From assembly GCA_964433755.1 (NCBI GenBank), contig CAYSSR010000002.1:212220-276219 (forward strand): a stretch of 64,000 nt of DNA, in the 5' to 3' direction. Position numbers and translations under genes: made by a program. The notes beneath the pieces were generated by a model that saw only the letters and a program-made list of their open reading frames with translations, was not told the origin of the DNA and ran no database searches. The stretch comes from an uncultured Anaerolineales bacterium (GTDB taxonomy: Bacteria; Chloroflexota; Anaerolineae; UBA7937; B3-Chlor). Shown here in pieces: positions 6,201 to 49,312 of the stretch (its first letter is position 1; each line of letters starts with the position of its first letter).

Positions 6201-6265
6201 GATGAGCACGAGCGCCCGGACGCGGGGTCCGGCGCGAGGTTCACAGAGAAAAGGAGGGGAAGCTA

Positions 6266-20793: not shown

Positions 20794-20970
20794 GAGATCC
20801 TCCCTTCTGCCTAACGCTGCCCACCAAGCCGGGGCAGACACGCCATCGGAACCTTTGGCACAGTGAATCACTGTTTCGCTTCTCTGTCAACTGGGACACA
20901 ATGGCCACATCGTGCCCGCTGTGTGCACCTTGGGCCCTTGTGGTCTTCGCCCATGACCTGCCATGTTGGA

Positions 20971-23441: not shown

Positions 23442-23477
23442 GCTGCTTTCCATATTCGCAAGAGGCCCGAGCGTGCG

Positions 23478-25836: not shown

Positions 25837-27017
25837 AGATAGCGTATTTCGACTGTTTCTCGGGTGTTAGTGGAGACATGATCCTCGGAGCACTTATCGA
25901 CTCCGGTCTGGACGTGGAGACACTGTGCCAGCATCTGGCCGGGCTGCATCTTTCCGAGTACGAACTGAAGGCAAGCCGCACACGAAAGGGAGCGATAGAA
26001 GCCACCGACGTGCAGGTGGTGGTCCACAGCGACGTCCATGAGCGCAAGCTTGCCGACATCGAGGGTGTGATCACCGGCAGTGATTTGCCTGAGGATATCA
26101 AACAGGCCAGCGTAGCCATCTTTCGCCGTCTGATCGGGATCGAAGCCACGATCCACGGCGCCGATCCCGAAGACGTGCACCTGCACGAAGTAGGCGCCAC
26201 CGATGCCATCGTGGACGTCGTGGGCTCACTTCTGGGCCTGAAGCTCCTGGGAGTGGAGAAGGTATATGCCTCCAGACTCCCTCTGGGACATGGTTTCGTG
26301 CGATGCTCCCACGGACTGCTGCCGCTGCCAGCTCCAGCTACGGTGGAACTACTCAGAGGGATCCCCGTGGTTCAGCTCGACGTCGAAGGAGAACTGGTTA
26401 CACCTACCGGCGCAGCGATCCTCACGGGCGTGGTCGAAGGATTCGGGCAGTTCCCCGAGATGACAGTAGACACTGTAGGATACGGGGCGGGCAAGAGCGA
26501 TTTCGAGTTCCCCAACCTGCTGAGGGTCTTCGTTGGATCCACCGTCCAAGAGACCGCGAGACCAACCGAGCAGGTGGTGCTCCTGGAAACCAATCTGGAC
26601 GACATGAACCCCGAACTGTTCGATCACATCATGCAGACGCTATTCGAGGCAGGGGCTCTGGACGTCTTCCTCCAGACCTTCCAGGGTAAGAAGAATCGCC
26701 CCGGAGTCCTCCTCTCCGTGCTGTGCCATCCCCACCAGACACAGCATCTCTCGAGGATCATCTTCGCAGAGACGACGACCTTGGGCATCCGCTACAAGAC
26801 CATGGACCGTCTATGCCTGGACCGCGAGTCAGCGCGGGTCGAGACACCACACGGCCAACTGAGGATCAAGGTAGCCAAGCTGGGCGGAGAGGTCGTGAAT
26901 CTGTCCCCCGAATACGAGGACTGCCGCCGCCTGGCCCTGGAGACAGGCAAGCCCCTCAAAGAAGTCTACGCTGCGGCGGAGGCCGCGGCAAAGCAATGGC
27001 GGAACCAGCATGAGTAG
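25833..27017 (+). CDS. larC: LarC nickel insertase, single uninterrupted ORF
   Basis: YFDCFSGVSGDM, HLHEVGATDAIVD, ELVTPTGA, LETNLDD, ETTTLGIR, PEYEDC. Confidence 0.95.
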   Translation: MKIAYFDCFSGVSGDMILGALIDSGLDVETLCQHLAGLHLSEYELKASRTRKGAIEATDVQVVVHSDVHERKLADIEGVITGSDLPEDIKQASVAIFRRLIGIEATIHGADPEDVHLHEVGATDAIVDVVGSLLGLKLLGVEKVYASRLPLGHGFVRCSHGLLPLPAPATVELLRGIPVVQLDVEGELVTPTGAAILTGVVEGFGQFPEMTVDTVGYGAGKSDFEFPNLLRVFVGSTVQETARPTEQVVLLETNLDDMNPELFDHIMQTLFEAGALDVFLQTFQGKKNRPGVLLSVLCHPHQTQHLSRIIFAETTTLGIRYKTMDRLCLDRESARVETPHGQLRIKVAKLGGEVVNLSPEYEDCRRLALETGKPLKEVYAAAEAAAKQWRNQHE

Positions 27018-35512: not shown

Positions 35513-35825
35513 CGACTCAGCCTCCCATGCCCTCCAGACCATTCTAGCTCAGTTCTGTCCCCTTAACCACCCATTCCTGTTGGCCGGTATACGCCGGACC
35601 TACCGACGCTGTCCAGGAACTGGCAGTTCCTGACAGGTTCTGGCAGGTCGGTCCACTCTGCGGGACAGCCAGGATAGCTTCTGGGAGGGCGTCCGGTAGT
35701 TTTCGGCAGTTCCGATGTGTTACAAGGACTGTGGATTCGCACATCGTCTCCTATCCAGCTTTCAAAGGCACGGTTCACGCAGGAGTGCGCCATCCGCCAG
35801 CAATCAGAAGAGGGGGTACGCCAGC

Positions 35826-37295
35826 GTGAAAACCATCCTGTTTGTACTGCCGGCTCTACAGGAAGTCCTCTCCCAGGAATTCCGCCAGATCAAGTACTCA
35901 CTGTTCCCGCCTTTGAGCCTCCTGACCCTCGCGGGGCTGGTCCCTGAGGGAAGGTACAACCTCGTGGTGAGAGACGAGCACGTCGAAGATGTCTTCGTCG
36001 AAGGAGACGTAGACCTGGTGGTCATGACCGTCTACGTCTCCTCTGCCAGGAGAGCGTACGAGATCAGCGACTTCTATCGGGCTCGGGGTGCGAAGGTGTT
36101 CCTGGGCGGGATACATCCCACCACGATGCCAGAGGAGGCCGCTCAACACGCGGACAGCATCTGCCTCGGCCCCGGCGAATCTGTGTTCCTCCAGATGCTC
36201 GAGGACTTCGAGCATGGATGCCTGAAGCAATACTACCACGGACACAGAGACAGGGACGTCTCCAGGGTTCCCCTTGCGCGCCGGGACCTGATGAACACGG
36301 GCAAGTACCTCGTCCCGAATACCTCGGCGGTTTCCAGGGGCTGCCTCTACTCCTGCGACTTCTGCTACAAGGAGAGCTTCTGGGGCAAGAACTACTATGA
36401 GTTTCGTCCCTTAGCCGACGTCAGAAAGGAGTTGGACACCTTCCGGCACAAGTTCGTATTCTTCCTGGACGACAATCTGATGGGCAACCGCCGAGAAGCG
36501 AGAAGGCTCTTCGCCTTACTGAAAGAGTACCACTTCGTCTGGCAGGCGGCTGCCTCCATCGACACCGCCTATACGCCAGGGTTCCTGGAGGACGCCTACG
36601 AAGCAGGCTGCAGAAGCCTCTTCGTCGGGTTCGAGTCCATCACCAAAGCCAACATGGAACGTGCCCACAAGCCTCAGAACCAGAAGTACGACTACGCTGG
36701 CGCCATCAGGAGATTCCACGATGCGGGGATCATGATCAACGGTAGCTTCGTTCTTGGCTTCGACGAAGACGATCCCGACGTCTTCGCCAGGACGGTCGAA
36801 TTCGCCATCCGAAACAAGATCGAGACGGCGACCTTCCACATCTTGACTCCCTTCCCCGGCACCAGATTGTTCGCCAGGCTGGAGGCAGAGGGCCGCATCC
36901 TGCATCGGGATTGGAGCGCCTATGATACCCGTCACGTCGTCTTTCAGCCCAGACTCATGACCCCGTCCGAGCTAGAGGAGGGGTACTGGTGGTCCTACGA
37001 GGAGTTCTACTCGTATGGGTCGATTCTTCGCCGATCAGTCGGGCTACCGAACCCTCTGAAGAGGCTGGTATACAACGTGGGCTGGAAGAAGATGGACACT
37101 CTCTGGGGTTTTGCGATAGACCACAACCTGATTCCTCACTTACTGCCCCTATTCGAGTTTGCTCTGGCGAGGGGTACGTCGCCGCGAGGTTGCAGCCCAG
37201 AGGCGGAACTCAAACGCCTGGTCGGAGGGGCACGGGAGAGTCGTGAAATGGAAGGGGTAGCGGGAGTGGGTGATGAGCGAACCCACCTCGGTTAG
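35826..37295 (+). CDS. B12-binding-domain radical SAM protein
   Basis: PPLSLLTLA, GGIHPT, SRGCLYSCDFC, FLDDN, GFES, TPFPGT. The last ~40 codons look non-conserved. Confidence 0.9.
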   Translation: MKTILFVLPALQEVLSQEFRQIKYSLFPPLSLLTLAGLVPEGRYNLVVRDEHVEDVFVEGDVDLVVMTVYVSSARRAYEISDFYRARGAKVFLGGIHPTTMPEEAAQHADSICLGPGESVFLQMLEDFEHGCLKQYYHGHRDRDVSRVPLARRDLMNTGKYLVPNTSAVSRGCLYSCDFCYKESFWGKNYYEFRPLADVRKELDTFRHKFVFFLDDNLMGNRREARRLFALLKEYHFVWQAAASIDTAYTPGFLEDAYEAGCRSLFVGFESITKANMERAHKPQNQKYDYAGAIRRFHDAGIMINGSFVLGFDEDDPDVFARTVEFAIRNKIETATFHILTPFPGTRLFARLEAEGRILHRDWSAYDTRHVVFQPRLMTPSELEEGYWWSYEEFYSYGSILRRSVGLPNPLKRLVYNVGWKKMDTLWGFAIDHNLIPHLLPLFEFALARGTSPRGCSPEAELKRLVGGARESREMEGVAGVGDERTHLG

Positions 37296-37355
37296 CTCAT
37301 CACTACCCAGAACGGTGCTGGAAACCAGGGAGGCCACTGGGTCTCAACCACCCCC
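37261..37355 (-). pseudogene. Full-length altered duplicate of tRNA-Sec (anticodon position reads CCA; 3' half refolded)
   Basis: GGGGGTGGTTGAGACCCAGTGGCCTCCCTGGTTTCCAGCACCGTTCTGGGTAGTGATGAGCTAACCGAGGTGGGTTCGCTCATCACCCACTCCCG; about 75/96 identical to selC at 40604-40699 by hand; acceptor stem and D-stem strands identical. Confidence 0.8.
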
Positions 37356-37603
37356 GCGTCTGACTGTCACAGCCATTCTCGCCAGCACAGCGCGGGCGAG
37401 ACGGCGCCTGGCAGAGATCTCCCGCGGACTTGTGCGCCGCCCACACCGGAAGTAGCGCCCGGCGCACTCTGACACCACGCCGGGCGCCAACCGACAAATG
37501 TCTACCCCGCAAGACGTCGCCGGCCACTGTCGACCCCAGCAGGCCAGGCAGCTGGATCGACACAGAAGTCGTCGGCGCTGCTGCCGCCTCGCAGAACAGC
37601 ACC

Positions 37604-38452
37604 TCAGGAACCCTTCTCCCTCCACAGGCTCGAGTCGGGCGTGAACAAGGGAGAACCGAACTCTTCGACACCGAACTGGCCGATCTTCTCCTGCGTGGGT
37701 ACAGATATCAGCCAGTCGATGAACTCGTTCGCGATGTCGGAGTTGATCTCCGGGCTCTTCTCCGGGTTCACTGCCATGACACCGTAGGGGTTGAACAGAA
37801 TGCTGTCGCCCTCCACCAGGATCACGAGCTCGGTACCCTCGAGCGTGCGAGCGAGGTACGTGGCCCGATCTGAGAGGGTGTAGGCCTGCTGCTCATCGGC
37901 CATGGTGAGCACCGCTCCCATGCCCTGCCCAGCCGAGACGTACCACGCACCCTCGGGCTCGACGTTCGCTGCTGCCCAGATCGCCTTCTCCTTGGTGTGG
38001 GTTCCGGAGTCGTCACCCCTGGAGACGAAGGCGGCCTCGGCCCCCGCGATCATGCCAAACGCCTCGGCTGCTTCGCCCATACCTGCTACGCCCGCAGGGT
38101 CCGCCTCTGGGCCTACGATGACGAAGTCGTTGTACATCACATCCTCACGACGTACCCCATGCCCCGCATCCATGAACGCATCTTCTCTGGCTCGCGCATG
38201 CACCAGGAGCACGTCGGCATCGCCGGCCTCGCCGATCTCGAGCGCCTGGCCAGTGCCCACGGCAACCACTTCCACTTTGACGTTATACTCCTCCTCGAAG
38301 TCGGGAAGAATGTAGTCCAGCAAGCCCGAATCCTGCGTACTGGTCGTGGTAGCCAGGGTCATGGTCTGCGGTTCCGCTGCCGGAGCGCCACACCCTGCCG
38401 CCAGGCTCAGCAGTACGGCACTAAGACAGAGCCAAATCCATAGCTTCCTCAT
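37604..38452 (-). CDS. tupA: Tungstate ABC transporter substrate-binding lipoprotein
   Basis: LATTTSTQDSGLL (TTTS motif), AVGTGQAL, FVSRGDDSGTH, YTLSDRATY; lipobox AAGC. Confidence 0.93.
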   Translation of the reverse strand: MRKLWIWLCLSAVLLSLAAGCGAPAAEPQTMTLATTTSTQDSGLLDYILPDFEEEYNVKVEVVAVGTGQALEIGEAGDADVLLVHARAREDAFMDAGHGVRREDVMYNDFVIVGPEADPAGVAGMGEAAEAFGMIAGAEAAFVSRGDDSGTHTKEKAIWAAANVEPEGAWYVSAGQGMGAVLTMADEQQAYTLSDRATYLARTLEGTELVILVEGDSILFNPYGVMAVNPEKSPEINSDIANEFIDWLISVPTQEKIGQFGVEEFGSPLFTPDSSLWREKGS

Positions 38453-38582
38453 GTCTCACTCTCCTGCGTTTCTTTCTCCCATGGTCTGCATCTCAGCCAT
38501 CACCGTTGACTGCTCCCCTTCACATGGTTCACCCTCCCTCTACATTCTGTCAGCCAGCAAGGCTCATCGGACGAGACCCAGC

Positions 38583-39314
38583 TCAGTACGTCATCTCGCC
38601 CCGAACGAAGGCCGCGGTGCGTGGGTCGCGAGGCGACTGGAAGAACTTCTCTACCTGGGCTGTCTCCACGATATGCCCGTCCAGCAACAGCGCTACCTGA
38701 TGAGCCAAACGCCTGGCCTGGAACACGTTGTGCGTCACCAGCACAAGTGTGGTTCCCTTCTCGCTGTTGAGCGTACGCACGATTTCTTCGATCAGTCCCA
38801 CGTTATACGGGTCAAGATTCGCGGTCGGCTCGTCCAGAAGCAGCACGTCTGGATCGAGCACCATAGCTCGGGCCAACGCCACACGTTGCCCTTCACCTCC
38901 GGAGAGCGTTCGAGCTTGTCGCCTGGCGAAGGTTCGCAGACCCACCTCTTCCAGGGCCGCCTCTATCCGCCTGGCGCTGTGCCGCCGACCTCTCAGGTGC
39001 AGACCGAACTTCACGTTGTCCCACACCGTCCTGTTTAGTAGCATGGGGCGCTGAAACACAGTAGTCACTCGACGAGACAGTTCGAGTGGCATGGGCTTGG
39101 TGGCGCTGAACTCCTCTCCGTGATAACGCACGTATCCGGTGGTGGGTGGCTCCAGGAAGTTCAGCAACCTGAGCAGGGTGCTCTTGCCCGCGCCACTCGG
39201 TCCTACGAGCGCGAAAATCTCTCCACGATGGACATCCAGCCTATCCACTTGCAGGACAATCTGACCGTCGTACTCCTTCGTTGCGCCACGCACCTCGTAG
39301 ACAGACTCGCTCAC
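38583..39314 (-). CDS. tupC: Tungstate ABC transporter ATPase
   Basis: GPSGAGKS Walker A, LSGGE, LLLDEPT, H-loop VTHN; context. Confidence 0.9.
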   Translation of the reverse strand: MSESVYEVRGATKEYDGQIVLQVDRLDVHRGEIFALVGPSGAGKSTLLRLLNFLEPPTTGYVRYHGEEFSATKPMPLELSRRVTTVFQRPMLLNRTVWDNVKFGLHLRGRRHSARRIEAALEEVGLRTFARRQARTLSGGEGQRVALARAMVLDPDVLLLDEPTANLDPYNVGLIEEIVRTLNSEKGTTLVLVTHNVFQARRLAHQVALLLDGHIVETAQVEKFFQSPRDPRTAAFVRGEMTY

Positions 39315-40033
39315 TGGTCAAACGTCCTTCCTTGCAGGCGCAGCATGGCCACGTTCGTGGCGAAGGAGAGTCCCAGTAGAACCACTCCCAGAGACATCGC
39401 CAAGTCAAAGTTGCCTTTCCGTGTCTCCAACACGATCGCGGTGGTGAGCACTCTCGTGCTGTGCTCGATGTTACCGCCGACCATCATCACCGCGCCCACT
39501 TCTGAGATGATGCTGCCAAAACCAGCAATCACAGAGACCACGACGCCCACCCGTGCTTCCATCAACACAGTCGCCGCGGTCTGCCACCGTGTGGCGCCCA
39601 GAGCACGCACCTGTCTCCGCAGTTCTGGATCCACCCCCATGACCGCAGCCATCGTAAAGCCAGCCACCAGCGGAAAGGAGATGATGCTCTGCGCTACTAC
39701 CATAGCCGCGGGGGTGAAAAGCGATGGAATGAGCCGGGAGCCTAGCTGCCCCAGGGGTCCACTGCGTGAGAGCATCAAGTAGACAAAGAGACCTACTACC
39801 ACCGGCGGAAAGCCCATGCCGGTGTAGAGCAGGGCGATCACGAGCCGACGCCCGAAGAAGCGACTCAATCCGAGAAAAGCTCCGAGAGGAATCCCGATCA
39901 GTGTGCTGATCAGCAGAGCAACACCCGACACCGAAAGGGACAGCCGCACGATCTCGTAGAGAGCGCTATCACCCGTGACGATCAGGTACAAAGCCTGGAC
40001 TAGACCATTCAGGATCTCTTCGATGGTCTGCAC
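39311..40033 (-). CDS. tupB: Tungstate ABC transporter permease
   Basis: GFPPVVVGL, ALGATR, AGFGSIISEVGA, GGNI...TRVLTTAI. Confidence 0.92.
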   Translation of the reverse strand: MQTIEEILNGLVQALYLIVTGDSALYEIVRLSLSVSGVALLISTLIGIPLGAFLGLSRFFGRRLVIALLYTGMGFPPVVVGLFVYLMLSRSGPLGQLGSRLIPSLFTPAAMVVAQSIISFPLVAGFTMAAVMGVDPELRRQVRALGATRWQTAATVLMEARVGVVVSVIAGFGSIISEVGAVMMVGGNIEHSTRVLTTAIVLETRKGNFDLAMSLGVVLLGLSFATNVAMLRLQGRTFDQ

Positions 40034-40213
40034 TCCTCACAACTGGACCCCTATCGCCATAGACGGTCCTGGGTCACTACCCCGCTGATCGCTCTCGAGC
40101 CCCGGCAGGAAAGCCTCCGACCTCAACGTTCTGAGCCTCTTGTCTCCCGACACCAGAGAAGACAGAGAAGAGGCACCTCGGAAAAGAGATGCCTTTCGGG
40201 AACCGGGCATACC

Positions 40214-40245
40214 AAAAGGACGGCGCCCCGAAAAGGACGCCGTCC
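40214..40245 (-). terminator. Intrinsic terminator (riboswitch expression platform of tupBCA)
   Basis: Minus strand GGACGGCGTCC-TTTTCG-GGGCGCCGTCC followed by TTTT. Confidence 0.8.
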
Positions 40246-40265
40246 GCAAACAGCCCGTCGGCGGA

Positions 40266-40364
40266 TCTCCTTTCCAAGAATGGGAGGTATAGCCGTTTCC
40301 AGCTATGCCCTATCGGCCTCGCTCCATTGGTCCGTGCTGTCCATTAGGTGACGAAGCTCGGAGA
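40266..40364 (-). ncRNA. Moco/Tuco riboswitch upstream of tupBCA
   Basis: TCTCC GAGC...CCTAA...AGGGC ATAGCT GGAAAC GGCTAT ACCTCCC ATTCTT GGAAA GGAGA; P1 is TCTCC/GGAGA; conserved CCTCCC...GGAAAGG core. Confidence 0.88.
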
Positions 40365-40396
40365 CACGACAAGATTAGATGTTCAAGAGCCAAGGG

Positions 40397-40425
40397 ATTA
40401 TGGCACATGTCTGGCAAGATGTCAA
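40397..40425 (-). promoter_or_regulatory. Sigma70 promoter for riboswitch-tupBCA
   Basis: TTGACA-17 bp-CATAAT with TGn extension. Confidence 0.75.
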
Positions 40426-40601
40426 GGCGGGTCTCTCCCGGGTCGGGAGGTTGAGACCGGCCGGGAGCCAACGTGGCCGCGAACTCCGGCTCTCCTGCAG
40501 ACGACTGCGGCCCCAGAACCTCATCAAGGGGAAGGAAGCATCTACGCCAGGCCAGAGCCCGCCTGCGGTGTGTCAGGCGAGGATGGGCTCCGTCGAGACC
40601 A

Positions 40602-40699
40602 GGCGGGAGTGGATGGGAGTCGAACCCACCATGGCTAGCTCGTCGCTACCCATCAACGGTTTTGAAGACCGCGGAGGCCACCGGGTCTCTACCACCCCC
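40602..40699 (-). tRNA. selC: tRNA-Sec (anticodon UCA)
   Basis: 8-bp acceptor stem GGGGGTGG/CCACTCCC, G73, 6-bp D-stem with 4-nt loop, anticodon loop CT-TCA-AA, long variable arm, GTGGG-TTCGACT-CCCAT T-arm; the genomic 3' end reads CCT. Confidence 0.97.
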
Positions 40700-40708
40700 A
40701 CTCCACCA

Positions 40709-40737
40709 ATCATACAACCTTTGGCGTGGACAGTCAA
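40709..40737 (-). promoter_or_regulatory. Sigma70 promoter for selC
   Basis: TTGACT-17 bp-TATGAT, 9 nt upstream of the tRNA 5' end. Confidence 0.75.
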
Positions 40738-40850
40738 GAGACAGCGATGGGACATCTCCCAGGGATCTTGGGGCATGCCAGGCCAAGCACGCCAGATGGT
40801 GAGAAAGACCGGACCACCGCACCGAGAAGGGGTGCGCTATCCCGATCGTC

Positions 40851-41537
40851 CTAGTCCAGCTTCAGGGGCAGCCAATGGTCGCCACACCACCGGACGATGG
40901 CGACAGCCTCCCCTCCTCTACGAGCGGGCCGCAGCTTGTCCGCCGCCACCAGCCCCTCGACCACCCGCTCTCCCTGCTCGGTACGTACGGCCGATATGCC
41001 CGCTTCCTGCAAGACCGACACCGGCTGCCGGCCTCGGAGCTCGCGCGATCTCCCCACCAGCACGTAGCGGCCGTCGTCGCCACTGGCGGCCAGACCCACC
41101 GCCGCCAGTGCTCCGATCACTCCGCTCTCGTCCCCGCCCAGACCCTCGAGTGGAAGACCATGGAGGCTGGCCAAAGAGCGTGCCTCATCCTGCGTAGCCA
41201 ATCGACTCTTAACCTGACGACCGAAGTCCACGACTGCGGGACCCACCACCTGAGCCACGCAGAGACCTGGATCGCTTCCCGGCTGGTGGCCATCCAGCAC
41301 CATCTGACGAACGCGCCGCAGAACGTCGTGGGGGTCGGGATTCTCGTTCCCATCCAGCAGGATGGCTGCCGAGCTGTTCTTCTTGGTGCAGGGGATGCGT
41401 GGATCCCTCAGCAGTTGGTGCCGCGTCACTCCCAAGACCACCAAGTCAGCCGAGAGCGACGCCGCAATCTGACGAGCCAGGTATCCAGTGCCCCGCGACT
41501 CCAACGTATCCGTGTCGTCTAGACCGACAATCAACAT
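40851..41537 (-). CDS. Stand-alone TiaS-like (DDTD-motif) ATP-utilising domain protein
   Basis: VGLDDTD, DPRIPCTKKNSS, SDPG, GVIGALAAVG correspond to TiaS N-terminal domains; 228 aa with no OB-fold or zinc ribbon. Confidence 0.75.
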   Translation of the reverse strand: MLIVGLDDTDTLESRGTGYLARQIAASLSADLVVLGVTRHQLLRDPRIPCTKKNSSAAILLDGNENPDPHDVLRRVRQMVLDGHQPGSDPGLCVAQVVGPAVVDFGRQVKSRLATQDEARSLASLHGLPLEGLGGDESGVIGALAAVGLAASGDDGRYVLVGRSRELRGRQPVSVLQEAGISAVRTEQGERVVEGLVAADKLRPARRGGEAVAIVRWCGDHWLPLKLD

Positions 41538-41543
41538 CTCTAC

Positions 41544-41572
41544 TTGACTAACACCTCGTGATCACGTATACT
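41544..41572 (+). promoter_or_regulatory. Sigma70 promoter for the 41634-DUF134 operon
   Basis: TTGACT-17 bp-TATACT; the spacer contains palindrome CGTGATCACG (41557-41566). Confidence 0.8.
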
Positions 41573-41574
41573 TA

Positions 41575-41594
41575 TTTTGGGCAAATGCCCAAAA
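41575..41594. promoter_or_regulatory. Palindromic operator TTTTGGGCA-AA-TGCCCAAAA
   Basis: Perfect 9-2-9 inverted repeat starting 3 bp after the -10 box. Confidence 0.75.
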
Positions 41595-41633
41595 CCAATC
41601 GCTGCTTCCACCCATACACAAGAGGAGGCTCCC

Positions 41634-41882
41634 ATGAGCAAGATCTTCGTTCGAGAGAGACGCCACGTCGGGCCCGGAGCAGGGCGACCCCGCTTCGCCA
41701 TCGTCGCGTCGCAGGGCGCTGATCTACGGGTCTACAAGACTCGCGTGCGCCGCTCGGAGCTAGAGACCATCGCGAGCCAGAGCGGGGCAGAGATCGTCCA
41801 TCTGCCCAGGGGCGAACAGTCGGACGAGGAGGAGCAACAAGCCACCCAGCGCCGCGGACGCCGTGGGCGCGATGCTGGGTAG
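41634..41882 (+). CDS. 82-aa hypothetical protein
   Basis: AGGAGG RBS, coding-like codon usage, 6 bp upstream of the DUF134 gene. Confidence 0.7.
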   Translation: MSKIFVRERRHVGPGAGRPRFAIVASQGADLRVYKTRVRRSELETIASQSGAEIVHLPRGEQSDEEEQQATQRRGRRGRDAG

Positions 41883-41888
41883 GGCTCC

Positions 41889-42215
41889 ATGCCCCGGCCT
41901 CGCAAGCGTCGAGTCCTGGCCAGCGAGCCTCGACCGGTGATCTACAAGCCGGCAGGGGTACCACTGAACCGCCTAAGCTCAGTGTCACTACTGCACGAGG
42001 AACTTGAGGCTCTGCGGCTGGCCGACGCAGAGGGTATGCTCCAGACAGCGGCAGCGGACCGGATGGGCATTTCTCGCTCCACCTTTCAGCGTGTGCTTGC
42101 CCGAGCGCGTTCGCGGGTGGCTCTTGCTCTGACAGGCGGCCATGCCCTGCGTATCGAGGGCGGTAGCTACGAAGTGCAACCACCACGCCTTCGGGGGCCG
42201 CGCCGCAGGCGGTAG
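41889..42215 (+). CDS. DUF134 HTH protein (predicted DNA-binding)
   Basis: MPRPRKRR...YKPAGVPL...EELEALRLADAEG..Q..AA.RMGISRSTFQR.L..AR..VA.AL..G.ALRIEGG. Confidence 0.92.
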   Translation: MPRPRKRRVLASEPRPVIYKPAGVPLNRLSSVSLLHEELEALRLADAEGMLQTAAADRMGISRSTFQRVLARARSRVALALTGGHALRIEGGSYEVQPPRLRGPRRRR

Positions 42216-42255
42216 TGCACGAGACGTCCTGCTCGGAACCAGAGGGCACTACCAG

Positions 42256-43086
42256 TCACTCCCGACGGTAGATCCGCGTGCCCGGGTTCTTCCCCTCCAG
42301 CGCCAGTGTGAGGTTGCCGGGGGCCAGGCCGTTGATGATCTGTACCTCTCGTACACTTCTGGCTCCTGCCAGGGCCCGCACCATGGCCCGTTCCACCGCC
42401 AGATCAGCCAGGTCCAACTCCAGGAGTTCGTTGACCTCGATCTCCGGGATAAACTCGGCCTGCGGCTCCTTCTTGGGGTCAGCCGTGTACAGACCTTCCT
42501 CGTCCTTGACCAGGATACAGCATCTGGCGCCCAGGACCTCTGCGGTGAGAAAGGCCCCGAAGTCGGTGCGGTGAGGCGGAATCCGCCCTCTGATCGGCGG
42601 CTCCTCCCAGAGTCCGTAGGGAGGCATGGCGTGCATTACCGGTATCGTGCCCAAGGCCAGGAACGAAGGGAGCTTGACCAGATCGTCGTGTCCGATCTTC
42701 ACACCGCCGCGAGGAGCAAGGAGGATGGAGATCATCAGGGCGTTCTGCTCGCTGATGCTCGAACCCAGCTTGGCTAGCACGCCTGTGGGCATCCCCAGGT
42801 CCAGCGCAATGGAGTACGCGTGACGGCTACGGGTCCCGCCTCCCGTCACCACCAGGAGATCGTGTCCTTCTCTCGCTGCGACGATCTCCTCGATCAGAGG
42901 CAGCACCACCTTACGCCCGCGATCGATGATGCTCTGTCCCCCCAGCTTGACCACGTTGAGATCAGGCAAAGGTCGGAACACGTGCCCGATCTCGGTGCCC
43001 TCGAGCAGACCCTTGTCCATCAGCGACTCGGCCATCAACTCTGTCTCGATGTGCAGCCGGCCGCTGTCATCCCTTACCAGGCCCAT
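42256..43086 (-). CDS. Molybdenum storage protein (MosA/MosB)-like amino-acid-kinase-fold protein
   Basis: VKLGGQSIIDRG, TGGGTRSRH.Y.IALDLGMPTGVL, EQNALM, MPPYGLWE, IPPHRTD.GAFL.AE, VKDEEGLYTADPK. Confidence 0.82.
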   Translation of the reverse strand: MGLVRDDSGRLHIETELMAESLMDKGLLEGTEIGHVFRPLPDLNVVKLGGQSIIDRGRKVVLPLIEEIVAAREGHDLLVVTGGGTRSRHAYSIALDLGMPTGVLAKLGSSISEQNALMISILLAPRGGVKIGHDDLVKLPSFLALGTIPVMHAMPPYGLWEEPPIRGRIPPHRTDFGAFLTAEVLGARCCILVKDEEGLYTADPKKEPQAEFIPEIEVNELLELDLADLAVERAMVRALAGARSVREVQIINGLAPGNLTLALEGKNPGTRIYRRE

Positions 43087-43197
43087 CTGTGCCTTCCCTT
43101 CGTGTCTGGCAGCCTGCCCCCAACCCAACGCCAAGCAGACGAGCCTCGCCCGTCTACATACACAGAAACAGGATGAGACGGGCTGCGGCTGGCCCGT

Positions 43198-43722
43198 TCA
43201 GCTCCCCTGCAACCGATCCTGGTACCCGTGACGCAGATCCGACCCGGCAGCCTCTCGGAGGATCTCGATCCCGTGCGGCAGAACGGGGAAGATCACCTCC
43301 AGCCCCTCTCGCACAGCCTTGGTGCTCCCGGGCAGATTCACCACCAACGTCTGACCACGGATGCCGGCGACACCTCGGGAGAGCATCGCATGAGGCGTAG
43401 CTTTGGCACCCTCCGTTCTCATGGCCTCAGCCAGTCCCGGCGCCTCCCGCTCGATGATCCCCCTGGTAGCCTCTGGAGTAACGTCTCGCGGCGCGAAGCC
43501 GGTCCCCCCCGTAGTCAGGATCAGATCGAGGTCTTTCACGTCACACCATTCTATCAAGACTTGGCGGATGGAGTCCTGCTCATCCGGAACAACGGCTTGC
43601 TCCGTCACCTCGGCCTGCAGTCGCTCCACAACCAGATCCCTGATCAGGGGGCCGCTGGCATCTTCGGCCTCGCCCCGAGAGCATCGGTCGCTCACTGTCA
43701 GGACGCCCACGGAGATCTTCAT
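43198..43722 (-). CDS. mog: MogA/MoaB molybdopterin adenylyltransferase
   Basis: VLTVSDR, DASG, VPDE, TTGGTGFAPRDVTPEA, SRGVAGIRG.TL.VNLPGS. Confidence 0.93.
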   Translation of the reverse strand: MKISVGVLTVSDRCSRGEAEDASGPLIRDLVVERLQAEVTEQAVVPDEQDSIRQVLIEWCDVKDLDLILTTGGTGFAPRDVTPEATRGIIEREAPGLAEAMRTEGAKATPHAMLSRGVAGIRGQTLVVNLPGSTKAVREGLEVIFPVLPHGIEILREAAGSDLRHGYQDRLQGS

Positions 43723-45005
43723 GCGCCACTCCTAGACGACTCCAAGTCCCAAACTGAAGGGGCTGTATCACTGCCGCCCCTTTCCAGCAGCATGACCGTC
43801 ACACGGCTGCCCGCCGGCGCACGACTCCAGTCCTCCGGGATGATCGCCAAACCATCCGCTTCGATCATGGAGCTCAGAATCCCGGACCCCTGTTCTCCGG
43901 TGAGATACGCCTGCCACTCGCCGGCCTCCTCCAGGCGCACGCGCAAATAGTGACGGCGATCGTCCTTCCGCGACACTTCGTCCATGAGCACAGCCTCAAG
44001 GGTCGGACGCCTCCACTCCGTGGCGCCCTGCATCCTGAGAATCGCAGGGCGGGCGAAGAGCTCGAAGGAGATCATCGCCGAGACGGGATTCCCCGGCAAG
44101 CCCAACAACGGCACCCCCTCGATCTGTCCAAAAGCCAGAGGCTTTCCGGGCTTCATCCGTACACGCCAGAAAGTCATCTGGCCCTCAGCGGCCAACACTT
44201 CCTTCACCACGTCGAAATCGCCCACAGACACCCCGCCCGAGGTCAAGAAGAGGTCCACGCCTTGCGCCAGGCCGGTTCTGATCATCTCTGTCAGCTCTTC
44301 CACCTGGTCCCGAGCGATGCCCAGGACCACCGGAATGCCACCGCACTGCATCACCTGCGCGGCGTTGGAGTAGCTGTTCGCATTTCGTATCTTGCCCGGG
44401 GCCAGAGGCTGATCAACCTCCACCAACTCGTCGCCGGTAGCGAGAATGCCCACTCTCGGCCGCCGGGTGACCATGATCTCCTTCCGCCCCAGAGTGGCAG
44501 CCATGCCCACCTCCTGGGCACGGATCCGAGTTCCTGGACGGAGCACCAGCGTTCCCGCGCGGACATCCTCTCCAGCCGCTCGAGTGTCCTTGCCCACGGG
44601 CACGTCCACCTTCACGTCCACCCAGTCTCCATCACGGTCGGTATCCTCAAAGCGTACCACAGCATCAGCGTCCTCCGGCAAGGGCGCCCCGGTCATGATG
44701 CGTATGGTCGTGCCCGGCTCCACCGCCTTGTCGCTGACGTAGCCCGCCCCCAGGTCGCCCACCATCAGCAGGCGTCTTGGAGACTCGGGTGTCGCCCCCA
44801 CCGTGTCAGCCGCTTGCACAGCATAGCCGTCCATGGCCGAGTTGGTGTACGGTGGTATATCGACGTCGGCGCGCACGTCCTCGGCCAGAACGCGGCCCAG
44901 AGCCTCCAGTATCGGTACTCGCTCCGGCTCCAGGAGATCAAAGAAGCCCAGTACTCGTTCCAGGGCTTCTTCAACGCTCAGAACTGGGTACAGCTCACTC
45001 ACCAT
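43719..45005 (-). CDS. moeA: MoeA molybdopterin molybdo/tungstotransferase
   Basis: NSAMDGYAV, RIMTGAPLP, ATGDEL, NANS, TSGGVSVGDFD, KPGKP, LPGNPVS. Confidence 0.95.
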   Translation of the reverse strand: MVSELYPVLSVEEALERVLGFFDLLEPERVPILEALGRVLAEDVRADVDIPPYTNSAMDGYAVQAADTVGATPESPRRLLMVGDLGAGYVSDKAVEPGTTIRIMTGAPLPEDADAVVRFEDTDRDGDWVDVKVDVPVGKDTRAAGEDVRAGTLVLRPGTRIRAQEVGMAATLGRKEIMVTRRPRVGILATGDELVEVDQPLAPGKIRNANSYSNAAQVMQCGGIPVVLGIARDQVEELTEMIRTGLAQGVDLFLTSGGVSVGDFDVVKEVLAAEGQMTFWRVRMKPGKPLAFGQIEGVPLLGLPGNPVSAMISFELFARPAILRMQGATEWRRPTLEAVLMDEVSRKDDRRHYLRVRLEEAGEWQAYLTGEQGSGILSSMIEADGLAIIPEDWSRAPAGSRVTVMLLERGGSDTAPSVWDLESSRSGA

Positions 45006-45436
45006 TCGCCCTTCCATTCAGCACCATCTGCCCAGACTTCTTTCTTCCAGACGGGCACTATCTCCTTCAGCCGGTCGATCGCATAGCGCAATGCTTCGAA
45101 GACCTCTTCCCGATGGGCTGCGGACAGGGCGATGACTGCACTCACCTCCCCGGGCTGCAAGCGTCCAACACGATGAACGATAGCGACTCTGTCGATGCTC
45201 GCCCATCTTTGGCGGATCTCTTCACCCACCTGCTCCAGCATCTCTTCGGCCATCCCGGGATAGTGCTCGTACTCCAGGTAGCGAACTGCTCGACCATCGG
45301 TGTGGTCGCGAGCGACGCCTACGAACGAGGCCACAGCCCCGATGGAAGGGCTCGCCACCTGCGTCACGACCTCGTCCACATGCAACTCCCGCGTGGTAAT
45401 CTCGAACGGTCCGAGGGATGATGCTGTCGTCACCAA
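44999..45436 (-). CDS. moaE: Molybdopterin synthase catalytic subunit
   Basis: GAVASFVGVARD, LEYEHY, HRVGRL, SAAHREE.F, IDRLKEIVPVWKKE. Confidence 0.95.
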   Translation of the reverse strand: MVTTASSLGPFEITTRELHVDEVVTQVASPSIGAVASFVGVARDHTDGRAVRYLEYEHYPGMAEEMLEQVGEEIRQRWASIDRVAIVHRVGRLQPGEVSAVIALSAAHREEVFEALRYAIDRLKEIVPVWKKEVWADGAEWKGEW

Positions 45437-45438
45437 TC

Positions 45439-45684
45439 CTACCCTCCCGATACCGGCGGTATGCAGGCGACCTCATCGCCCTCGAACAGTTCCGTTCCCG
45501 GATCGGCATACCTCCGATTCACCGCGATCCTGACCGCGGCAGCGTAGCTCCCCAGAACCGGGTACCCCTCAACGAGGTCGGAAAGCAGTTGCCCGGCAGT
45601 CATTCCAGTATCGATCTCCCAATCCAGCTCTTTCGTGCCGAGCGCCTCCCGGGGACCACCGAAGAGCTTGATCTTCACTCGCAT
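45439..45684 (-). CDS. moaD: MoaD sulfur carrier
   Basis: 81 aa ubiquitin-like; AVNRRY; C-terminal PPVSGG. Confidence 0.95.
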
Positions 45685-46163
45685 GGGGACTCCTCGAGCA
45701 CGAGATCCCCGCTGCTCCCTCCGCTCTTCCTCACCAATCTGATCTCCCCGATCCTCATCGTCCTCTCCACGGCTTTGGCCATGTCATAGATGGTCAGCGC
45801 AGCCACACTCACCGCTGTGAGCGCCTCCATCTCCACGCCGGTCTGCCCTCGGCTTTGCGCCGTGGCCGTGATCTCTATCCGCGAGCCGGTTTCATCGACC
45901 TGGAAGTCCAGATCTACCTTGGTCAACAGAACAGGGTGACACAGCGGGATGAGCTCGGGAACCTTCTTGGCAGCCTGAATGCCTGCTACCCTGGCCACGG
46001 CGAACACATCCCCCTTGGGTAGTGCCTTCTCCACAATGAGACGGAGGGTCGCCGGACGCATGCTCACCTCTCCCCTGGCCACAGCCACCCTCTTCGTAGC
46101 TGGCTTGTCACCTACGTCCACCATTTGAGCGCGACCTTCATCGTCCAGATGAGTCAATTCCAT
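45675..46163 (-). CDS. moaC: Cyclic pyranopterin monophosphate synthase
   Basis: [39 protein letters not shown]. Confidence 0.96.
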
Positions 46164-46241
46164 GGTGCCCCCCATATGCCGTGGATGATCGCCACTGACG
46201 CAGCCAGACCGTTGTCGTCCCCCAGCCAGTCGACCAAGACT

Positions 46242-47237
46242 CTAGCCGCCGAGCTGAGACATGGTTCGCCGCAGCGAAGTCACCGACTCCGCCAGGTGGT
46301 GCTCGCGCGGCTTGCTCTGCACACCCCTGAGCAGCAGTTCCCTAATCTCGGCCACGCCCGCGCCCTGCCGCAACGGGGTCCGCAGATCGATCTCCGCGTC
46401 CGAGAGAAGACACGGCCGAAGCTGCCCGTCAGCCGTCAGGCGCATCCTGTTGCATCGGCAGCAGAAATGCTCGCTGATCGGGGTTATGAAGCCCACAGTG
46501 CCCCGCGCTCCCGGCAACCGGTAGTAGCGCGCAGGTCCGTTCCCGACAGATACCTTCGCTGCTGTCAGTGGCCCAAGCTCGCTCTCGATCTTTCCCCGCA
46601 TCTCCTCCGCGGTCACGACCTTCTGTCGCCATTCGTCGCCGACAAGGCTTCCACTGCCTACCGGCATTAGCTCGATGAAACGCAGATCCCAGCCCTCCTC
46701 TATCGTTTGGCGAGCGAAGTCAACGATCTCATCATCATTGATGCCCCTGATGACCACCGCGTTGATCTTTACGGGATCGAGCCCCGTTCTCCTGGCAGTC
46801 TCTATTCCATCCAGCACGTCCTGGAGCCGCCCGCCACGAGTGATCCACGCGAAGCGCTCCGGACGCAGTGAGTCGACGCTGACGTTGACCCTACGGAGCC
46901 CCGCCTTGGCCAGAGCAGATGCATAGCGCGATAGCAGAGTGCCATTTGTGGTCATCGCCAGGTCGTCGATCCCCGGGATGCCGGATAGCATCCTCACCAG
47001 ATCCACTACCCCCAACCGAACCAAAGGCTCACCACCTGTCAGGCGCACCTTGCTGATCTGTAGTTCTGCGGCCGCGCGCACTACGGTCTCGATCTCTTCG
47101 TAGGTCAGAATCGCTCCGTGCCCGACCGACGGCACACCCTCCTCGGGCATACAGTACTCGCATCGCAGGTTGCAGCGATCAGTCACAGAGATGCGAAGAT
47201 AGCTGATCGGACGATTGCACGGATCCAGATGTGTCAT
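46242..47237 (-). CDS. moaA: GTP 3',8-cyclase
   Basis: YLRISVTDRCNLRCEYC, RLTGGEPL, FCCRCNRMRLTADG.LRPCL, C-terminal GG. Confidence 0.96.
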   Translation of the reverse strand: MTHLDPCNRPISYLRISVTDRCNLRCEYCMPEEGVPSVGHGAILTYEEIETVVRAAAELQISKVRLTGGEPLVRLGVVDLVRMLSGIPGIDDLAMTTNGTLLSRYASALAKAGLRRVNVSVDSLRPERFAWITRGGRLQDVLDGIETARRTGLDPVKINAVVIRGINDDEIVDFARQTIEEGWDLRFIELMPVGSGSLVGDEWRQKVVTAEEMRGKIESELGPLTAAKVSVGNGPARYYRLPGARGTVGFITPISEHFCCRCNRMRLTADGQLRPCLLSDAEIDLRTPLRQGAGVAEIRELLLRGVQSKPREHHLAESVTSLRRTMSQLGG

Positions 47238-47354
47238 CGACCCCCGACGACTCCCTCTTGACCGTCAGCCCACACGGCCAGACAGCTTACGCCTCCCACC
47301 GTAGCCACTTCTCTCCCCTCAGCGGGCACCGTGCCCACCAAGCCACGAAGGTTC

Positions 47355-47388
47355 AAAAAAGGCGCCCCCTGAAAGGTAGTGGACGCCT
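47355..47388 (-). terminator. Intrinsic terminator (riboswitch expression platform of moa operon)
   Basis: Minus strand AGGCGTCC...GGGGCGCC followed by TTTTTT. Confidence 0.8.
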
Positions 47389-47410
47389 CACCAAATCCTG
47401 TCTGCAGCCC

Positions 47411-47509
47411 TTCTCCTTTCCAACCACGGGAGGCATAACCGTTTCCAGTTGTGCCCTGTCGCCCAATACCCGTAAGCCCGAGGACTCCCAGGGTCATTGG
47501 GTCGGAGAA
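47411..47509 (-). ncRNA. Moco/Tuco riboswitch upstream of moaA
   Basis: TTCTCC GACCCAATGACCCTGGG...GGGTATTGGG...AGGGC ACAACT GGAAAC GGTTAT GCCTCCC GTGGTT GGAAA GGAGAA. Confidence 0.9.
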
Positions 47510-47530
47510 TCGGTCTATACTCTCGATTCT

Positions 47531-47559
47531 ATTATACGGTCCGCAGAGCCGGAACGCAA
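47531..47559 (-). promoter_or_regulatory. Sigma70 promoter for riboswitch-moa operon
   Basis: TTGCGT-17 bp-TATAAT. Confidence 0.7.
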
Positions 47560-47696
47560 ACCCTGGCTAGTCTAGGCACTGTATGTGGCGGGCACGCGCT
47601 CTCGGTGGAGCAGACACATCCAAGAGGATCCGGTCCCCCGTGAGCAGGACAGGCTGGCAGCGGGTATGACAGCATTCTCAGCAACGCTGGATCGTG

Positions 47697-48638
47697 CTAG
47701 CGGAGCGCCTCCTCGAGGGCGCGCTGGGTCTCACGCGTATCAAGGGGACCAGGGTAGTTGTACAACGGCCCTCTCGGCGGCTCGTTGTAGTAGGGACGGT
47801 TGCAGCCTGGGCAGCCCGACGTCCGAAAGGCCTGGCCATCCAGCAGCGCTCTCTCCAGCTCGTCGCGTCCCAGTCCGAAGGACACCACCTGCCCTCGAGG
47901 CGAGAAGGCGAAGTCCTCGACCGCCACCCGGCCATTCACGATCAGGTATCTGGCTATCTGAACCCGCCGGTAGCTCGACACAGACGGAGAAGCCTGGTCT
48001 TCCATGGTGGTTCCAGGGATCGGAGTGAAGGCGAAGAGCGCAGGTGTGACCTCCCAATCGTGGAGGAGGGCTATCATGCGCACCATCTGTTCCTCCGTCT
48101 CCCCCAGCCCTACCATCAGGTGAGTGCTGACCCGCCCGGGAAAGCGATGTGCGGCCTCTTCGATGACTGCGAGGGACGCGCGGAGATTCCCTCCCTTCAC
48201 CCGGTGGAAGGCCTCCTCGTTGACGGCGTCGAGACTCAGCCCTATCCTCTCCACACCAGCCTCGAGCAGGTCCTCGGCCTGATCCGCGTTAGCCACCACA
48301 GAAACGCTGAGAGGCACCTTCCGGCCCAGTCGGGTCGCTATGGCTCCCACGCGATCCAGATTCCCAGGGCCGACCGTGACCTGCAAACAGCACCGCTCGA
48401 TGCTGCCCTTCGAGTAGGCCTCTTCCACCGCAGAGAGAGTCTCCTCCTCGTCACACTGCGGCCAGGTGACGCGAGACAATGCCAGCGCCGAGGCCCTGCT
48501 GCTTCGCGCCTGAGCACAGAAAGCACAGTCACGACGACAACGCCCCCCCACCATCAGGTAAGCCGTGGTCGGGGGGGCGTCCAGCCAAGTCTCTGCCAAG
48601 CCCAGGACGCCAAGCGTCCCTGATGAGACTTTGATCAA
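47697..48638 (-). CDS. lipS2: LipS2-type (biotin-synthase-related) radical SAM protein
   Basis: TTAYLM..G.CRRDCAFC, LSRVTWP, C-terminal TSGCPGCNRP matching the LipS2 TxGCPxC(N/D)RP motif; TTG start after AGGAG. Confidence 0.72.
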   Translation of the reverse strand: MIKVSSGTLGVLGLAETWLDAPPTTAYLMVGGRCRRDCAFCAQARSSRASALALSRVTWPQCDEEETLSAVEEAYSKGSIERCCLQVTVGPGNLDRVGAIATRLGRKVPLSVSVVANADQAEDLLEAGVERIGLSLDAVNEEAFHRVKGGNLRASLAVIEEAAHRFPGRVSTHLMVGLGETEEQMVRMIALLHDWEVTPALFAFTPIPGTTMEDQASPSVSSYRRVQIARYLIVNGRVAVEDFAFSPRGQVVSFGLGRDELERALLDGQAFRTSGCPGCNRPYYNEPPRGPLYNYPGPLDTRETQRALEEALR

Positions 48639-48652
48639 CCGACTCCTCGCTC

Positions 48653-49312
48653 CTACTCCGCTGACTCCTCTGTCGGCGCCACGCGCTCCGCACCTCGCGC
48701 CTTCAAACGACGATAGATGAAGAACCCAACCAGCGCCAGCACGACGAGGATGATCGGGATGTCGAAGGGGCGCATCGCTTCCCGGACCCTCTCCCAGTGC
48801 TCCCCGAACACGTAGCCAGCCCATCCAAGGACCCAGCACCAGATGAAGGAACCCGTGAAGGTCCATACCGTGAACTTGACGAAGTTCATGCGGGCCACGC
48901 CGGCCGGCAGCGAGATGAAGGTGCGCACCACCGGCAACAACCGGGAGAAGAACGCCGTGTGCTCTCCATACCTGGCAAACCACCGGTCCGCCACCTCTAT
49001 CTCGTGGGTTTGGATCAGGACGTACTTCCCATACTTCTCCAGAAGCGGCCTCCCACCTTTGGCACCGATCCAGTAAGTGAAGACGGAACCCAGCGTGCAG
49101 CCCACGGCGCCCCACCAACCCGCCCAGAAAGTGTGCCACACTGACAAGCCCTTGGCCTGGATCAGCATCCATCCCGCCAGAGGCATGGTGACCTCGCTGG
49201 GCAATGGTATGCAAGCGCTCTCGATGGCCATAGCCAGAACAATGCCAGCCCAGCCAACGGCTTGGATAAGATTCTGAAGGAATAGCACAATCTGATGCTC
49301 AATCGCTTCCAA
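48653..49312 (-). CDS. DedA family membrane protein
   Basis: MAIESACIPLPSEV, FFSRLLPVVRTFISLPAG. Confidence 0.93.
   Translation of the reverse strand: MEAIEHQIVLFLQNLIQAVGWAGIVLAMAIESACIPLPSEVTMPLAGWMLIQAKGLSVWHTFWAGWWGAVGCTLGSVFTYWIGAKGGRPLLEKYGKYVLIQTHEIEVADRWFARYGEHTAFFSRLLPVVRTFISLPAGVARMNFVKFTVWTFTGSFIWCWVLGWAGYVFGEHWERVREAMRPFDIPIILVVLALVGFFIYRRLKARGAERVAPTEESAE

Follow-up and report, generated by a model that had tools for sequence, protein, structure and literature searches.

The buffering and storage of tungsten in cells, and its separation from molybdenum, are poorly understood. Repressors of the ModE/TunR type respond to molybdate or tungstate, and the only known molybdenum/tungsten (Mo/W) storage protein is, to our knowledge, seen as a rare feature of nitrogen fixers like Azotobacter. 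This protein, MoSto, needs ATP and stores tungsten as well (PMC6448029); its genes, mosAB, are among the rarest molybdenum genes and are restricted to select taxa (PMC13144720). Molybdenum cofactor (Moco) RNAs of the P3-less class correlate with tungsten-cofactor genes and metabolism (Regulski et al. 2008, PMC2408646). Described here is a locus of an uncultured Anaerolineales bacterium (GenBank assembly GCA_964433755.1, contig CAYSSR010000002.1, positions 212,220 to 276,219 of the forward strand) in which a P3-less riboswitch precedes each of two operons, one for tungstate uptake and the other for cofactor synthesis, the latter ending in a MoSto homologue. The window is the whole 64,000-nucleotide stretch analysed, and all coordinates without a locus prefix refer to it.

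The stretch is read, with a probability of about 70%, as a tungsten-cofactor supply cluster of an Anaerolineae bacterium carrying a conserved accessory module, for which a mechanism is proposed below. One riboswitch controls a unit with the order moaA-moaC-moaD-moaE-moeA-mog-MoSto-like, and the other controls tupBCA. The conserved module, lying between the two units, consists of TiaSL (a stand-alone protein resembling the TiaS kinase domain), the single-subunit MoSto homologue, a DUF134 protein and p82, a small protein. Several hundred uncultured Anaerolineae, and at least one lineage further removed, have a MoSto relative together with a small putative partner protein and a TiaS-type ATP-using domain in their tungsten-cofactor regulons. 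From 37.2 to 48.7 kb the genes are almost wholly on the minus strand, with p82 and DUF134 on the plus strand and converging on the moa operon. The features are as follows.

37258-37355, minus: apparently decayed copy of selC (the "twin"), ~80% identical to selC; anticodon CCA
37604-38452, minus: tupA, tungstate-binding lipoprotein; PBP_like_2 (2.8e-51), lipobox LAAGC, motif TTTSTQDSG
38583-39314, minus: tupC, ATP-binding cassette (ABC) transporter ATPase; ABC_tran (8.2e-34)
39311-40033, minus: tupB, ABC permease; BPD_transp_1, NF038017 at 257 bits (cutoff 100), TupB model (6.3e-48)
40218-40245, minus: predicted intrinsic terminator, expression platform of the tup riboswitch; 12-bp stem with 9 G-C pairs, then TTTT
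40251-40375, minus: P3-less Moco-family riboswitch 5' of tupBCA; RF01055 at 68.1 bits (gathering score 36)
40397-40425, minus: predicted promoter of the riboswitch-tupBCA unit; TTGACA-17-CATAAT, 11/12 matches, extended TG
40602-40699, minus: selC, tRNA-Sec with anticodon UCA; ARAGORN, Rfam RF01852 at 70.3 bits (against 47)
40709-40737: predicted selC promoter; TTGACT-17-TATGAT
40851-41537, minus: TiaSL, TiaS-like stand-alone kinase-domain protein, 228 aa; TiaS_TCKD (6.8e-8)
41544-41572, plus: predicted promoter of the p82-DUF134 operon; TTGACT-17-TATACT, 10/12 matches
41575-41594, no strand assigned: putative operator, 20-bp palindrome TTTTGGGCAAATGCCCAAAA; the only match in the window
41634-41882, plus: p82, small unnamed protein, 82 aa; no Pfam or NCBIfam match
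41889-42215, plus: DUF134 helix-turn-helix protein; PF02001 (3e-21) and helix-turn-helix models
42256-43134, minus: single MoSto homologue, final gene of the moa operon; E 3.6e-75 to MosB
43198-43722, minus: mog/moaB, molybdopterin adenylyltransferase; MoCF_biosynth (1.3e-32), NF006932 at 159.9 bits (cutoff 158)
43719-45017, minus: moeA, metal insertase; MoeA_N, MoCF_biosynth and MoeA_C domains
44999-45436, minus: moaE; PF02391 (6.2e-40)
45439-45684, minus: moaD; ThiS family (7.8e-16)
45675-46175, minus: moaC; PF01967 (1.3e-57)
46242-47237, minus: moaA; Radical_SAM and Mob_synth_C
47355-47387, minus: predicted intrinsic terminator of the moa riboswitch, read from the sequence as GGCGUCC, a 12-nt loop, GGGGCGCC and U6
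47397-47519, minus: P3-less Moco-family riboswitch 5' of the moa operon; RF01055 at 71.4 bits (against 36)
47531-47560: predicted promoter of the moa riboswitch, read from the sequence as TTTGCG-18-TATAAT
47697-48638, minus: LipS2-family radical S-adenosylmethionine (SAM) lipoyl synthase; equivalog NF053743 at 335.6 bits (cutoff 270)
48653-49312: DedA, 5' of LipS2 in a DedA-LipS2 unit

All of the elements named in a preliminary description of this stretch are thus present where it placed them: tupBCA, the moa set, the MoSto homologue, the riboswitches, selC and its twin, and the genes for TiaSL, p82, DUF134 and LipS2. Its mention of a full molybdopterin pathway slightly overstated the case, as moaA, moaC, moaD, moaE, moeA and mog are there and no moeB or other MoaD-activating gene was found in the stretch. 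Open reading frames (ORFs) of at least 60 aa that overlap the region number 97, several of them spurious. Those set aside were a 70-aa ORF at 40037-40249, which lies in the riboswitch leader and matches no family; a 225-aa ORF at 41572-42249, antisense to p82 and DUF134; a 272-aa ORF at 40379-41197, taken as spurious; and a 505-aa form of LipS2 that runs into DedA.

Recurrence of the module in related loci

The window was compared with a set of 83 related loci (80 genomes and three metagenome contigs; individual loci carry L numbers), using the window proteins, energy-coupling factor (ECF) transporter proteins from two loci and a covariance model built from 11 riboswitches, and with a second set of 80 more distant loci. 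In 79 loci the sequence reaches 400 nt or more upstream of the TiaSL gene; 35 of them have p82 as its divergent upstream neighbor, and DUF134 comes next in 29 of these; the MoSto-like gene usually converges on p82-DUF134 there, as it does in the window. Directly upstream of TiaSL lies a tup gene in 13 and a MoSto-like gene in 5 of the same 79 loci. A P3-less riboswitch heads the operon holding TiaSL in eight loci, either directly or via one small lipoprotein gene. None of these eight has p82 or DUF134 (0/8), and no riboswitch was found in the p82-TiaSL spacers. By our own count from the locus table, p82 and the MoSto-like gene occur together in ~28 loci and singly in ~5 each. Among the 43 loci with at least 5 kb of flanking sequence on both sides, 33 have a tup, moa or MoSto-like gene, a riboswitch or a GntR-PBP regulator gene; by our estimate, one tup operon would fall into a random 20-kb window of a 4-5 Mb genome by chance in well under 1% of cases.

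The arrangement extends to a more distant lineage. This lineage, found in a scan of metagenome contigs with distant TiaSL relatives, has p82 on the opposite strand followed by MoSto-like, TiaSL and tupA-tupB-tupC in one direction, with no DUF134; identity is ~50% for MoSto-like and ~45% for Tup. The DUF134 protein of the module was found in Anaerolineae only. This layout implies a deeper core of MoSto-like, p82, TiaSL and Tup, to which DUF134 is an Anaerolineae addition. The p82-MoSto spacer of this distant lineage (L108:5010-5100, and likewise L113, L114 and L115) contains another repeat, approximately TATACCAGNNGATATA, present twice, which may act as an operator for some other regulator or for p82.

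In relatives, the usual downstream partner of TiaSL is an ECF-type importer, which follows it in 56 of the 73 loci with enough downstream DNA (e.g., L001:10702-14078, L002:11327-13924, and 54 further related loci). It is made up of two ATPase domains (A and A'), a CbiQ-like T component, a membrane-anchored protein of 123-168 aa and a PF09819 S component, and some riboswitch-led operons have the order TiaSL-ECF-moaACDE-moeA. An extracytoplasmic lipoprotein domain with weak likeness to the Moco-binding fold of sulfite oxidase (PF00174, E 1.8e-4) was also seen in 41 of the 83 related loci (e.g., L084:9446-9976, L014:9235-9879, L071:3529-4083 and L002:8585-9313). This domain, which does not occur in the window, is fused to TupA, stands alone just 5' of TiaSL, or lies near the ECF genes.

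Components of the cluster and a proposed mechanism

Both window riboswitches score about twice the Rfam gathering score, with a stem and a run of U residues downstream of each. Aligned to RF01055, the two have their P3 columns deleted, as do 12 aligned riboswitches of related loci, and the invariant blocks GGAAAC, CCUCCC and GGAAAGGAG are present in the window riboswitches; the tup riboswitch scores 108.6 bits against our own model R1. By sequence, each aptamer has a promoter before it and an intrinsic terminator after it, and is read as ending transcription when cofactor is plentiful, the tungsten cofactor being the presumed ligand. In the closest syntenic relative, L017, two P3-less riboswitches stand in tandem 5' of moaA (4933-5045 and 5126-5238). 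The transporter has the composition of a TupABC system, its single operon encoding a TTTS-type binding protein, a permease and an ATPase, and is a divergent member of that family with predicted selectivity for tungsten.

The amino-acid-kinase-fold protein encoded at 42256-43134 aligns over residues 28-288 with MosB (256 bits, E 3.6e-75) and MosA (177 bits, E 4.9e-51), against only 48 bits (1e-11) with UMP kinase. On these scores it is a true MoSto relative. The window has a single MoSto copy, as does each of 33 related loci, rather than the two paralogs of an (alpha-beta)3 assembly.

The confident AlphaFold 2 (AF2) model of TiaSL (pLDDT 85, pTM 0.81) superposes through its N-terminal ~150 residues on the kinase domain of TiaS, equivalent to ~150 of the 417 TiaS residues (Foldseek E 1.7e-8), while its C-terminal ~75 residues form a small beta domain without a match. 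The motif G-x-DDTD and Thr17, which aligns with Thr18 of TiaS, are invariant even between family members of 30-45% identity. TiaSL is shorter than TiaS (228 vs. ~420 aa), lacks the portions of TiaS that lie outside the kinase domain, and scores 17.8 bits against the full-length TiaS equivalog NF040849, whose cutoff is 600. The missing part presumably comprises the tRNA-binding domains (ferredoxin-like, OB and zinc-ribbon). Sequence and model thus suggest a protein that works like the ATP-using half of TiaS without being TiaS, and its genomic context speaks for a small molecule of Mo/W handling as substrate. Close homologs with the 228-aa length number more than 3,880, the wider family falls into 821 clusters at 50% clustering, and when one genome per species was scanned, 512 stretches proved to encode relatives, the best 80 of which come nearly all from Anaerolineae and other Chloroflexota, with a few from Spirochaetota. 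Some homologs (P0013, P0105) carry the NCBI label "ABC transporter substrate-binding protein", which looks wrong because TiaSL has no signal peptide and has a kinase-domain fold. Weak Foldseek matches to the pterin kinase HPPK (E 0.05-0.15) were treated as noise, and nothing relevant was found in a literature search on TiaS together with molybdopterin or tungstate.

The 1,503 homologs of p82 are all unnamed or hypothetical proteins; none carries a Pfam domain, and the few with an organism label are from Chloroflexota. The protein has a conserved core of ~60 aa followed by an acidic and then an Arg-rich tail, and its AF2 model (pLDDT 74) presents a small alpha/beta core with a disordered tail, for which a fold search against the PDB gave nothing better than E 0.15. 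That p82 acts as a partner of the MoSto-like protein is favored at slightly less than even odds, and that it is a co-regulator appears appreciably less probable. A role solely as a co-regulator of DUF134 is weakened by the distant lineage, which has p82, MoSto-like and TiaSL and no DUF134.

DUF134, which scores 76.2 bits against the Pfam gathering score of 27, is always encoded directly 3' of p82; the window protein contains no cysteine. The p82-TiaSL spacers share a perfect or near-perfect 20-bp palindrome, TTTTGGGCATATGCCCAAAA, which in relatives lies just 3' of a conserved TTGACA-17-TATACT promoter facing p82. Of the 83 related loci, 33 have a single copy of it, always at the p82 promoter; all 29 with DUF134 are among them, and the four DUF134 loci of the second set have it as well (4/4). 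The window has one copy with one mismatch, and none of 100 shuffled sequences gave a match. Where p82 occurs without DUF134 the palindrome is degenerate, lopsided or lost; in L075 it remains with p82 though TiaSL is 6 kb away. From this co-occurrence alone we infer that DUF134 is a candidate repressor binding the palindrome. Because the TiaSL start codon lies only ~40-60 nt past the palindrome, a single operator would control the two divergent units, and we infer that DUF134 may be a protein-based stand-in for the riboswitch. If DUF134 does bind the 20-bp site, this would be the first function for DUF134, on which a literature search returned nothing relevant. In six loci (L004, L007, L008, L011, L044 and L066) a second GC-rich hairpin (e.g., GGGCGCGCC-N3-GGCGCGCC) lies between the palindrome and the p82 start; it has no clear counterpart in the window.

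Taken together, the cluster is best read as a tungsten module, concerned with tungsten (or molybdenum) handling and its regulation, rather than as a tungsten-selenium-sulfur island. In the proposed mechanism, DUF134 bound to the palindrome over the p82 promoter would repress both p82-DUF134 and the divergent TiaSL gene, taking the place of the riboswitch found at the head of the TiaSL operon where DUF134 is absent. TiaSL would carry out an ATP-using activation of a small molecule, not of a tRNA, and together with the MoSto-like protein and p82 would provide ATP-dependent buffering of imported tungstate (or molybdate) or its hand-over among Tup, the storage cage and MoeA. A bolder version of this scheme is offered only tentatively and is less likely to be right than wrong: the beta-like single-subunit MoSto, p82 and TiaSL may together form an undescribed ATP-driven store or mobilizer of tungsten, in which TiaSL activates the oxyanion or drives its passage and p82 is a small partner of the cage; in Anaerolineae, DUF134 may be a repressor sensing tungsten status, and no member of its family before it would have had a defined operator; and the regulon of relatives may include a new ECF uptake route with an outer binding domain resembling the sulfite-oxidase fold.

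Alternative readings of the cluster

Several observations weigh against reading the stretch as a tungsten-cofactor supply cluster with a dedicated module. Ten of the 43 well-flanked loci have no Mo/W marker within 10 kb, and the window lacks the ECF importer that is the usual partner of TiaSL. A Planctomycete-like branch of TiaSL (L088, L089 and L107, around 6001-6720) is encoded beside DUF1559/prepilin-type N-methyl proteins with no Mo/W genes nearby, so that the idea of a TiaSL family tied to tungsten as a whole was rejected and the claim is limited to the tungsten-linked branch. The best NCBIfam match of TupA is tung_bind_TupA, at 229 bits against an equivalog cutoff of 400, and TupB reaches 164 against 320; as both fall under their cutoffs, specificity for tungsten over molybdenum is deduced from the TTTS motif and from the class of riboswitch. 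The absence of a fold match leaves room for p82 to be a regulator instead of a MoSto partner, the palindrome was assigned its binder from co-occurrence only, and the sequencing runs that contain the window sequence are all DNA sediment metagenomes.

The prominence of the ECF importer suggests a reading in which the module serves that importer, for instance in salvage of pterins or cofactor precursors or of other metal species, with TiaSL re-phosphorylating or trapping the import; the link to tungstate storage would then be secondary and the window TiaSL a leftover. TiaSL is indeed the first gene of the ECF operon in 56 of 73 loci, moa genes and moeA join it in some riboswitch-led operons, and the sulfite-oxidase-fold-like domain accompanies both Tup and ECF. 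However, 17 loci and the window keep an intact, highly conserved TiaSL without ECF, almost always accompanied by p82, MoSto-like or tup genes, and the distant lineage has MoSto-like-TiaSL-tupABC with no ECF, making this reading unlikely. A tRNA substrate for TiaSL, either C34 of the CCA-anticodon twin or another tRNA, with an incidental tungsten context, would accord with the TiaS kinase-domain fold and motifs, with the position of TiaSL next to selC and with the C34 carried by the twin. It is highly improbable given that only the kinase domain of TiaS is kept, and that the constant neighbors of TiaSL are transporters, MoSto-like and moa genes, with a cofactor riboswitch heading its operon in at least eight genomes. 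Action on C34 of the twin was rejected on distribution, as 512 stretches encode relatives and tRNA-Sec is near only one of the 83 loci examined. Chance clustering, or an annotation artifact of a GC-rich genome with overlapping ORFs, could appeal to the 97 ORFs in the region and to spurious ones among them, such as 41572-42249 and the 505-aa extension of LipS2. Against strong family matches and an order and sequence conserved over more than 100 independent contigs, this can be given next to no weight and is already refuted.

A further reading is the one put forward in the preliminary description, an integrated W/Mo-Se(-S) cofactor island in which selC, its twin and LipS2 are functional members and the function-unknown genes supply missing steps of tungsto-selenoenzyme maturation. 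All of these elements lie inside 11 kb, tungsten formate dehydrogenases often contain selenocysteine, and L017 too has selC and LipS2 a few kb from its moa riboswitches. Yet L017 is the only one of the 83 related loci in which tRNA-Sec (by ARAGORN) or LipS2 accompanies the module, and there LipS2 is divided from moaA by selC and another gene. The window selC stands under its own promoter, and both are nearly identical in L017. The twin, which lacks this shared promoter, proved not to be a recognizable tRNA despite its ~80% identity to selC: it retains the acceptor and D stems, but its anticodon stem is weakened, the T loop reads UUCGC instead of UUCGA, and a 9+4 bp hairpin folds in place of the T arm. 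It was not called by ARAGORN and gave no Rfam match even at E <= 5. It looks like a decayed duplicate of selC and overlaps by 38 nt the 3' end of a convergent gene for a B12-binding radical SAM protein (35715-37295), beside which it probably marks the old position of selC, outside the functional module. LipS2 belongs to a separate DedA-LipS2 unit. The NF053743 model covers residues 194-488 of the 505-aa ORF, placing the real start near 48638, and because the protein passes this curated lipoyl-synthase cutoff it is not a gene of unknown function. No LipS1 match was found among the radical SAM ORFs scanned in the window, which also contains no sel gene or selenoprotein gene.

The phylogenetic profiling that had been suggested, run as a neighborhood comparison over the 83 related and 80 more distant loci, therefore divides the four unknowns. 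Guilt by association holds for TiaSL, p82 and DUF134, and extends to the MoSto homologue, which recur together in dozens of related genomes next to P3-less riboswitches, tupBCA and the moa genes, and it fails for LipS2. The tempting selenium and lipoyl-sulfur links in the window do not hold; these associations are incidental, and nothing here ties the module to tungsto-selenoenzyme maturation. Integration as a foreign island is contradicted by a G+C content of 0.59-0.64 across and beside the stretch without a shift, by the absence of an integrase or mobility gene among the ORFs annotated in and beside it, and by synteny with L017. The order in L017 is DedA-LipS2-selC-(B12 radical SAM, reversed)-two riboswitches-moaACDE-MoSto-like-(DUF134 and p82, reversed)-TiaSL-PurM-like. 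In the window it is DedA-LipS2-(moa through TiaSL)-selC-(riboswitch-tupBCA)-twin-(B12 radical SAM, reversed), so that the twin occupies the place of selC in L017 and tupBCA lies between the two selC copies, the only island-like trait. Comparison of the two orders indicates a reshuffling of resident genes: the change is a local rearrangement and not an imported island, and selC, its decayed copy and DedA-LipS2 would have been moved beside the cluster in this way. The island reading is consequently judged improbable, and the tungsten module remains the preferred interpretation.

Elsewhere in the window, a LarC-type nickel-insertion protein (25833-27017; PF01969, E 6.8e-146) suggests that a set of genes for a nickel-pincer cofactor lies upstream, and a second B12-binding radical SAM protein is encoded at 21069-22427 in addition to that at 35715-37295. 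The ORFs at 13531-16221, 60401-62692, 19456-20871 and 22884-24086 (896, 763, 471 and 400 aa) matched no Pfam family at E <= 1e-5, and none of the ten largest other ORFs in the window proved to encode a Mo/W enzyme.

Comparison with described systems

The LipS2-family protein meets the equivalog model of the two-protein LipS1/LipS2 lipoyl synthase, from which the window differs in having only the LipS2 partner among its scanned radical SAM ORFs. For TiaSL the closest known systems are archaeal TiaS, the tRNA(Ile2) agmatidine synthetase (PDB 3amt, 5xob), and with it the stand-alone Pyrococcus homolog 3u02. The kinase fold, the N-terminal G-x-DDTD motif and the autophosphorylated Thr are common ground; unlike archaeal TiaS, TiaSL is bacterial, is encoded in metal-uptake operons and has a ~75-aa beta domain in place of the remainder of TiaS. 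The proposed DUF134 repressor would resemble ModE/TunR in acting at a palindromic operator before genes for Mo/W uptake or handling, whereas DUF134 is an unrelated small helix-turn-helix family with no Mop/TOBE oxyanion-binding domain and, here, no cysteine.

The MoSto homologue shares clear full-length homology with the Azotobacter vinelandii protein (MosA/MosB; PDB 2ogx, 4f6t, 6gu5). The latter is an alpha/beta pair found in a nitrogenase context; the window homologue is the product of one gene and occurs in a tungsten context, in an anaerobe-type lineage, with p82 and TiaSL as companions. The systems of Regulski et al. (2008, PMC2408646) match the window in placing a P3-less RF01055 aptamer with a terminator platform 5' of molybdopterin genes and a Tup-type transporter. 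They differ from it in that the window moa operon finishes with a MoSto homologue, and the riboswitch-headed operons of TiaS-like and ECF genes seen in relatives are not described there. The cluster itself is of a known kind, a riboswitch-gated supply of the W/Mo cofactor; its conserved MoSto-like/p82/TiaSL core and putative DUF134 operator make it an undescribed form of that kind.

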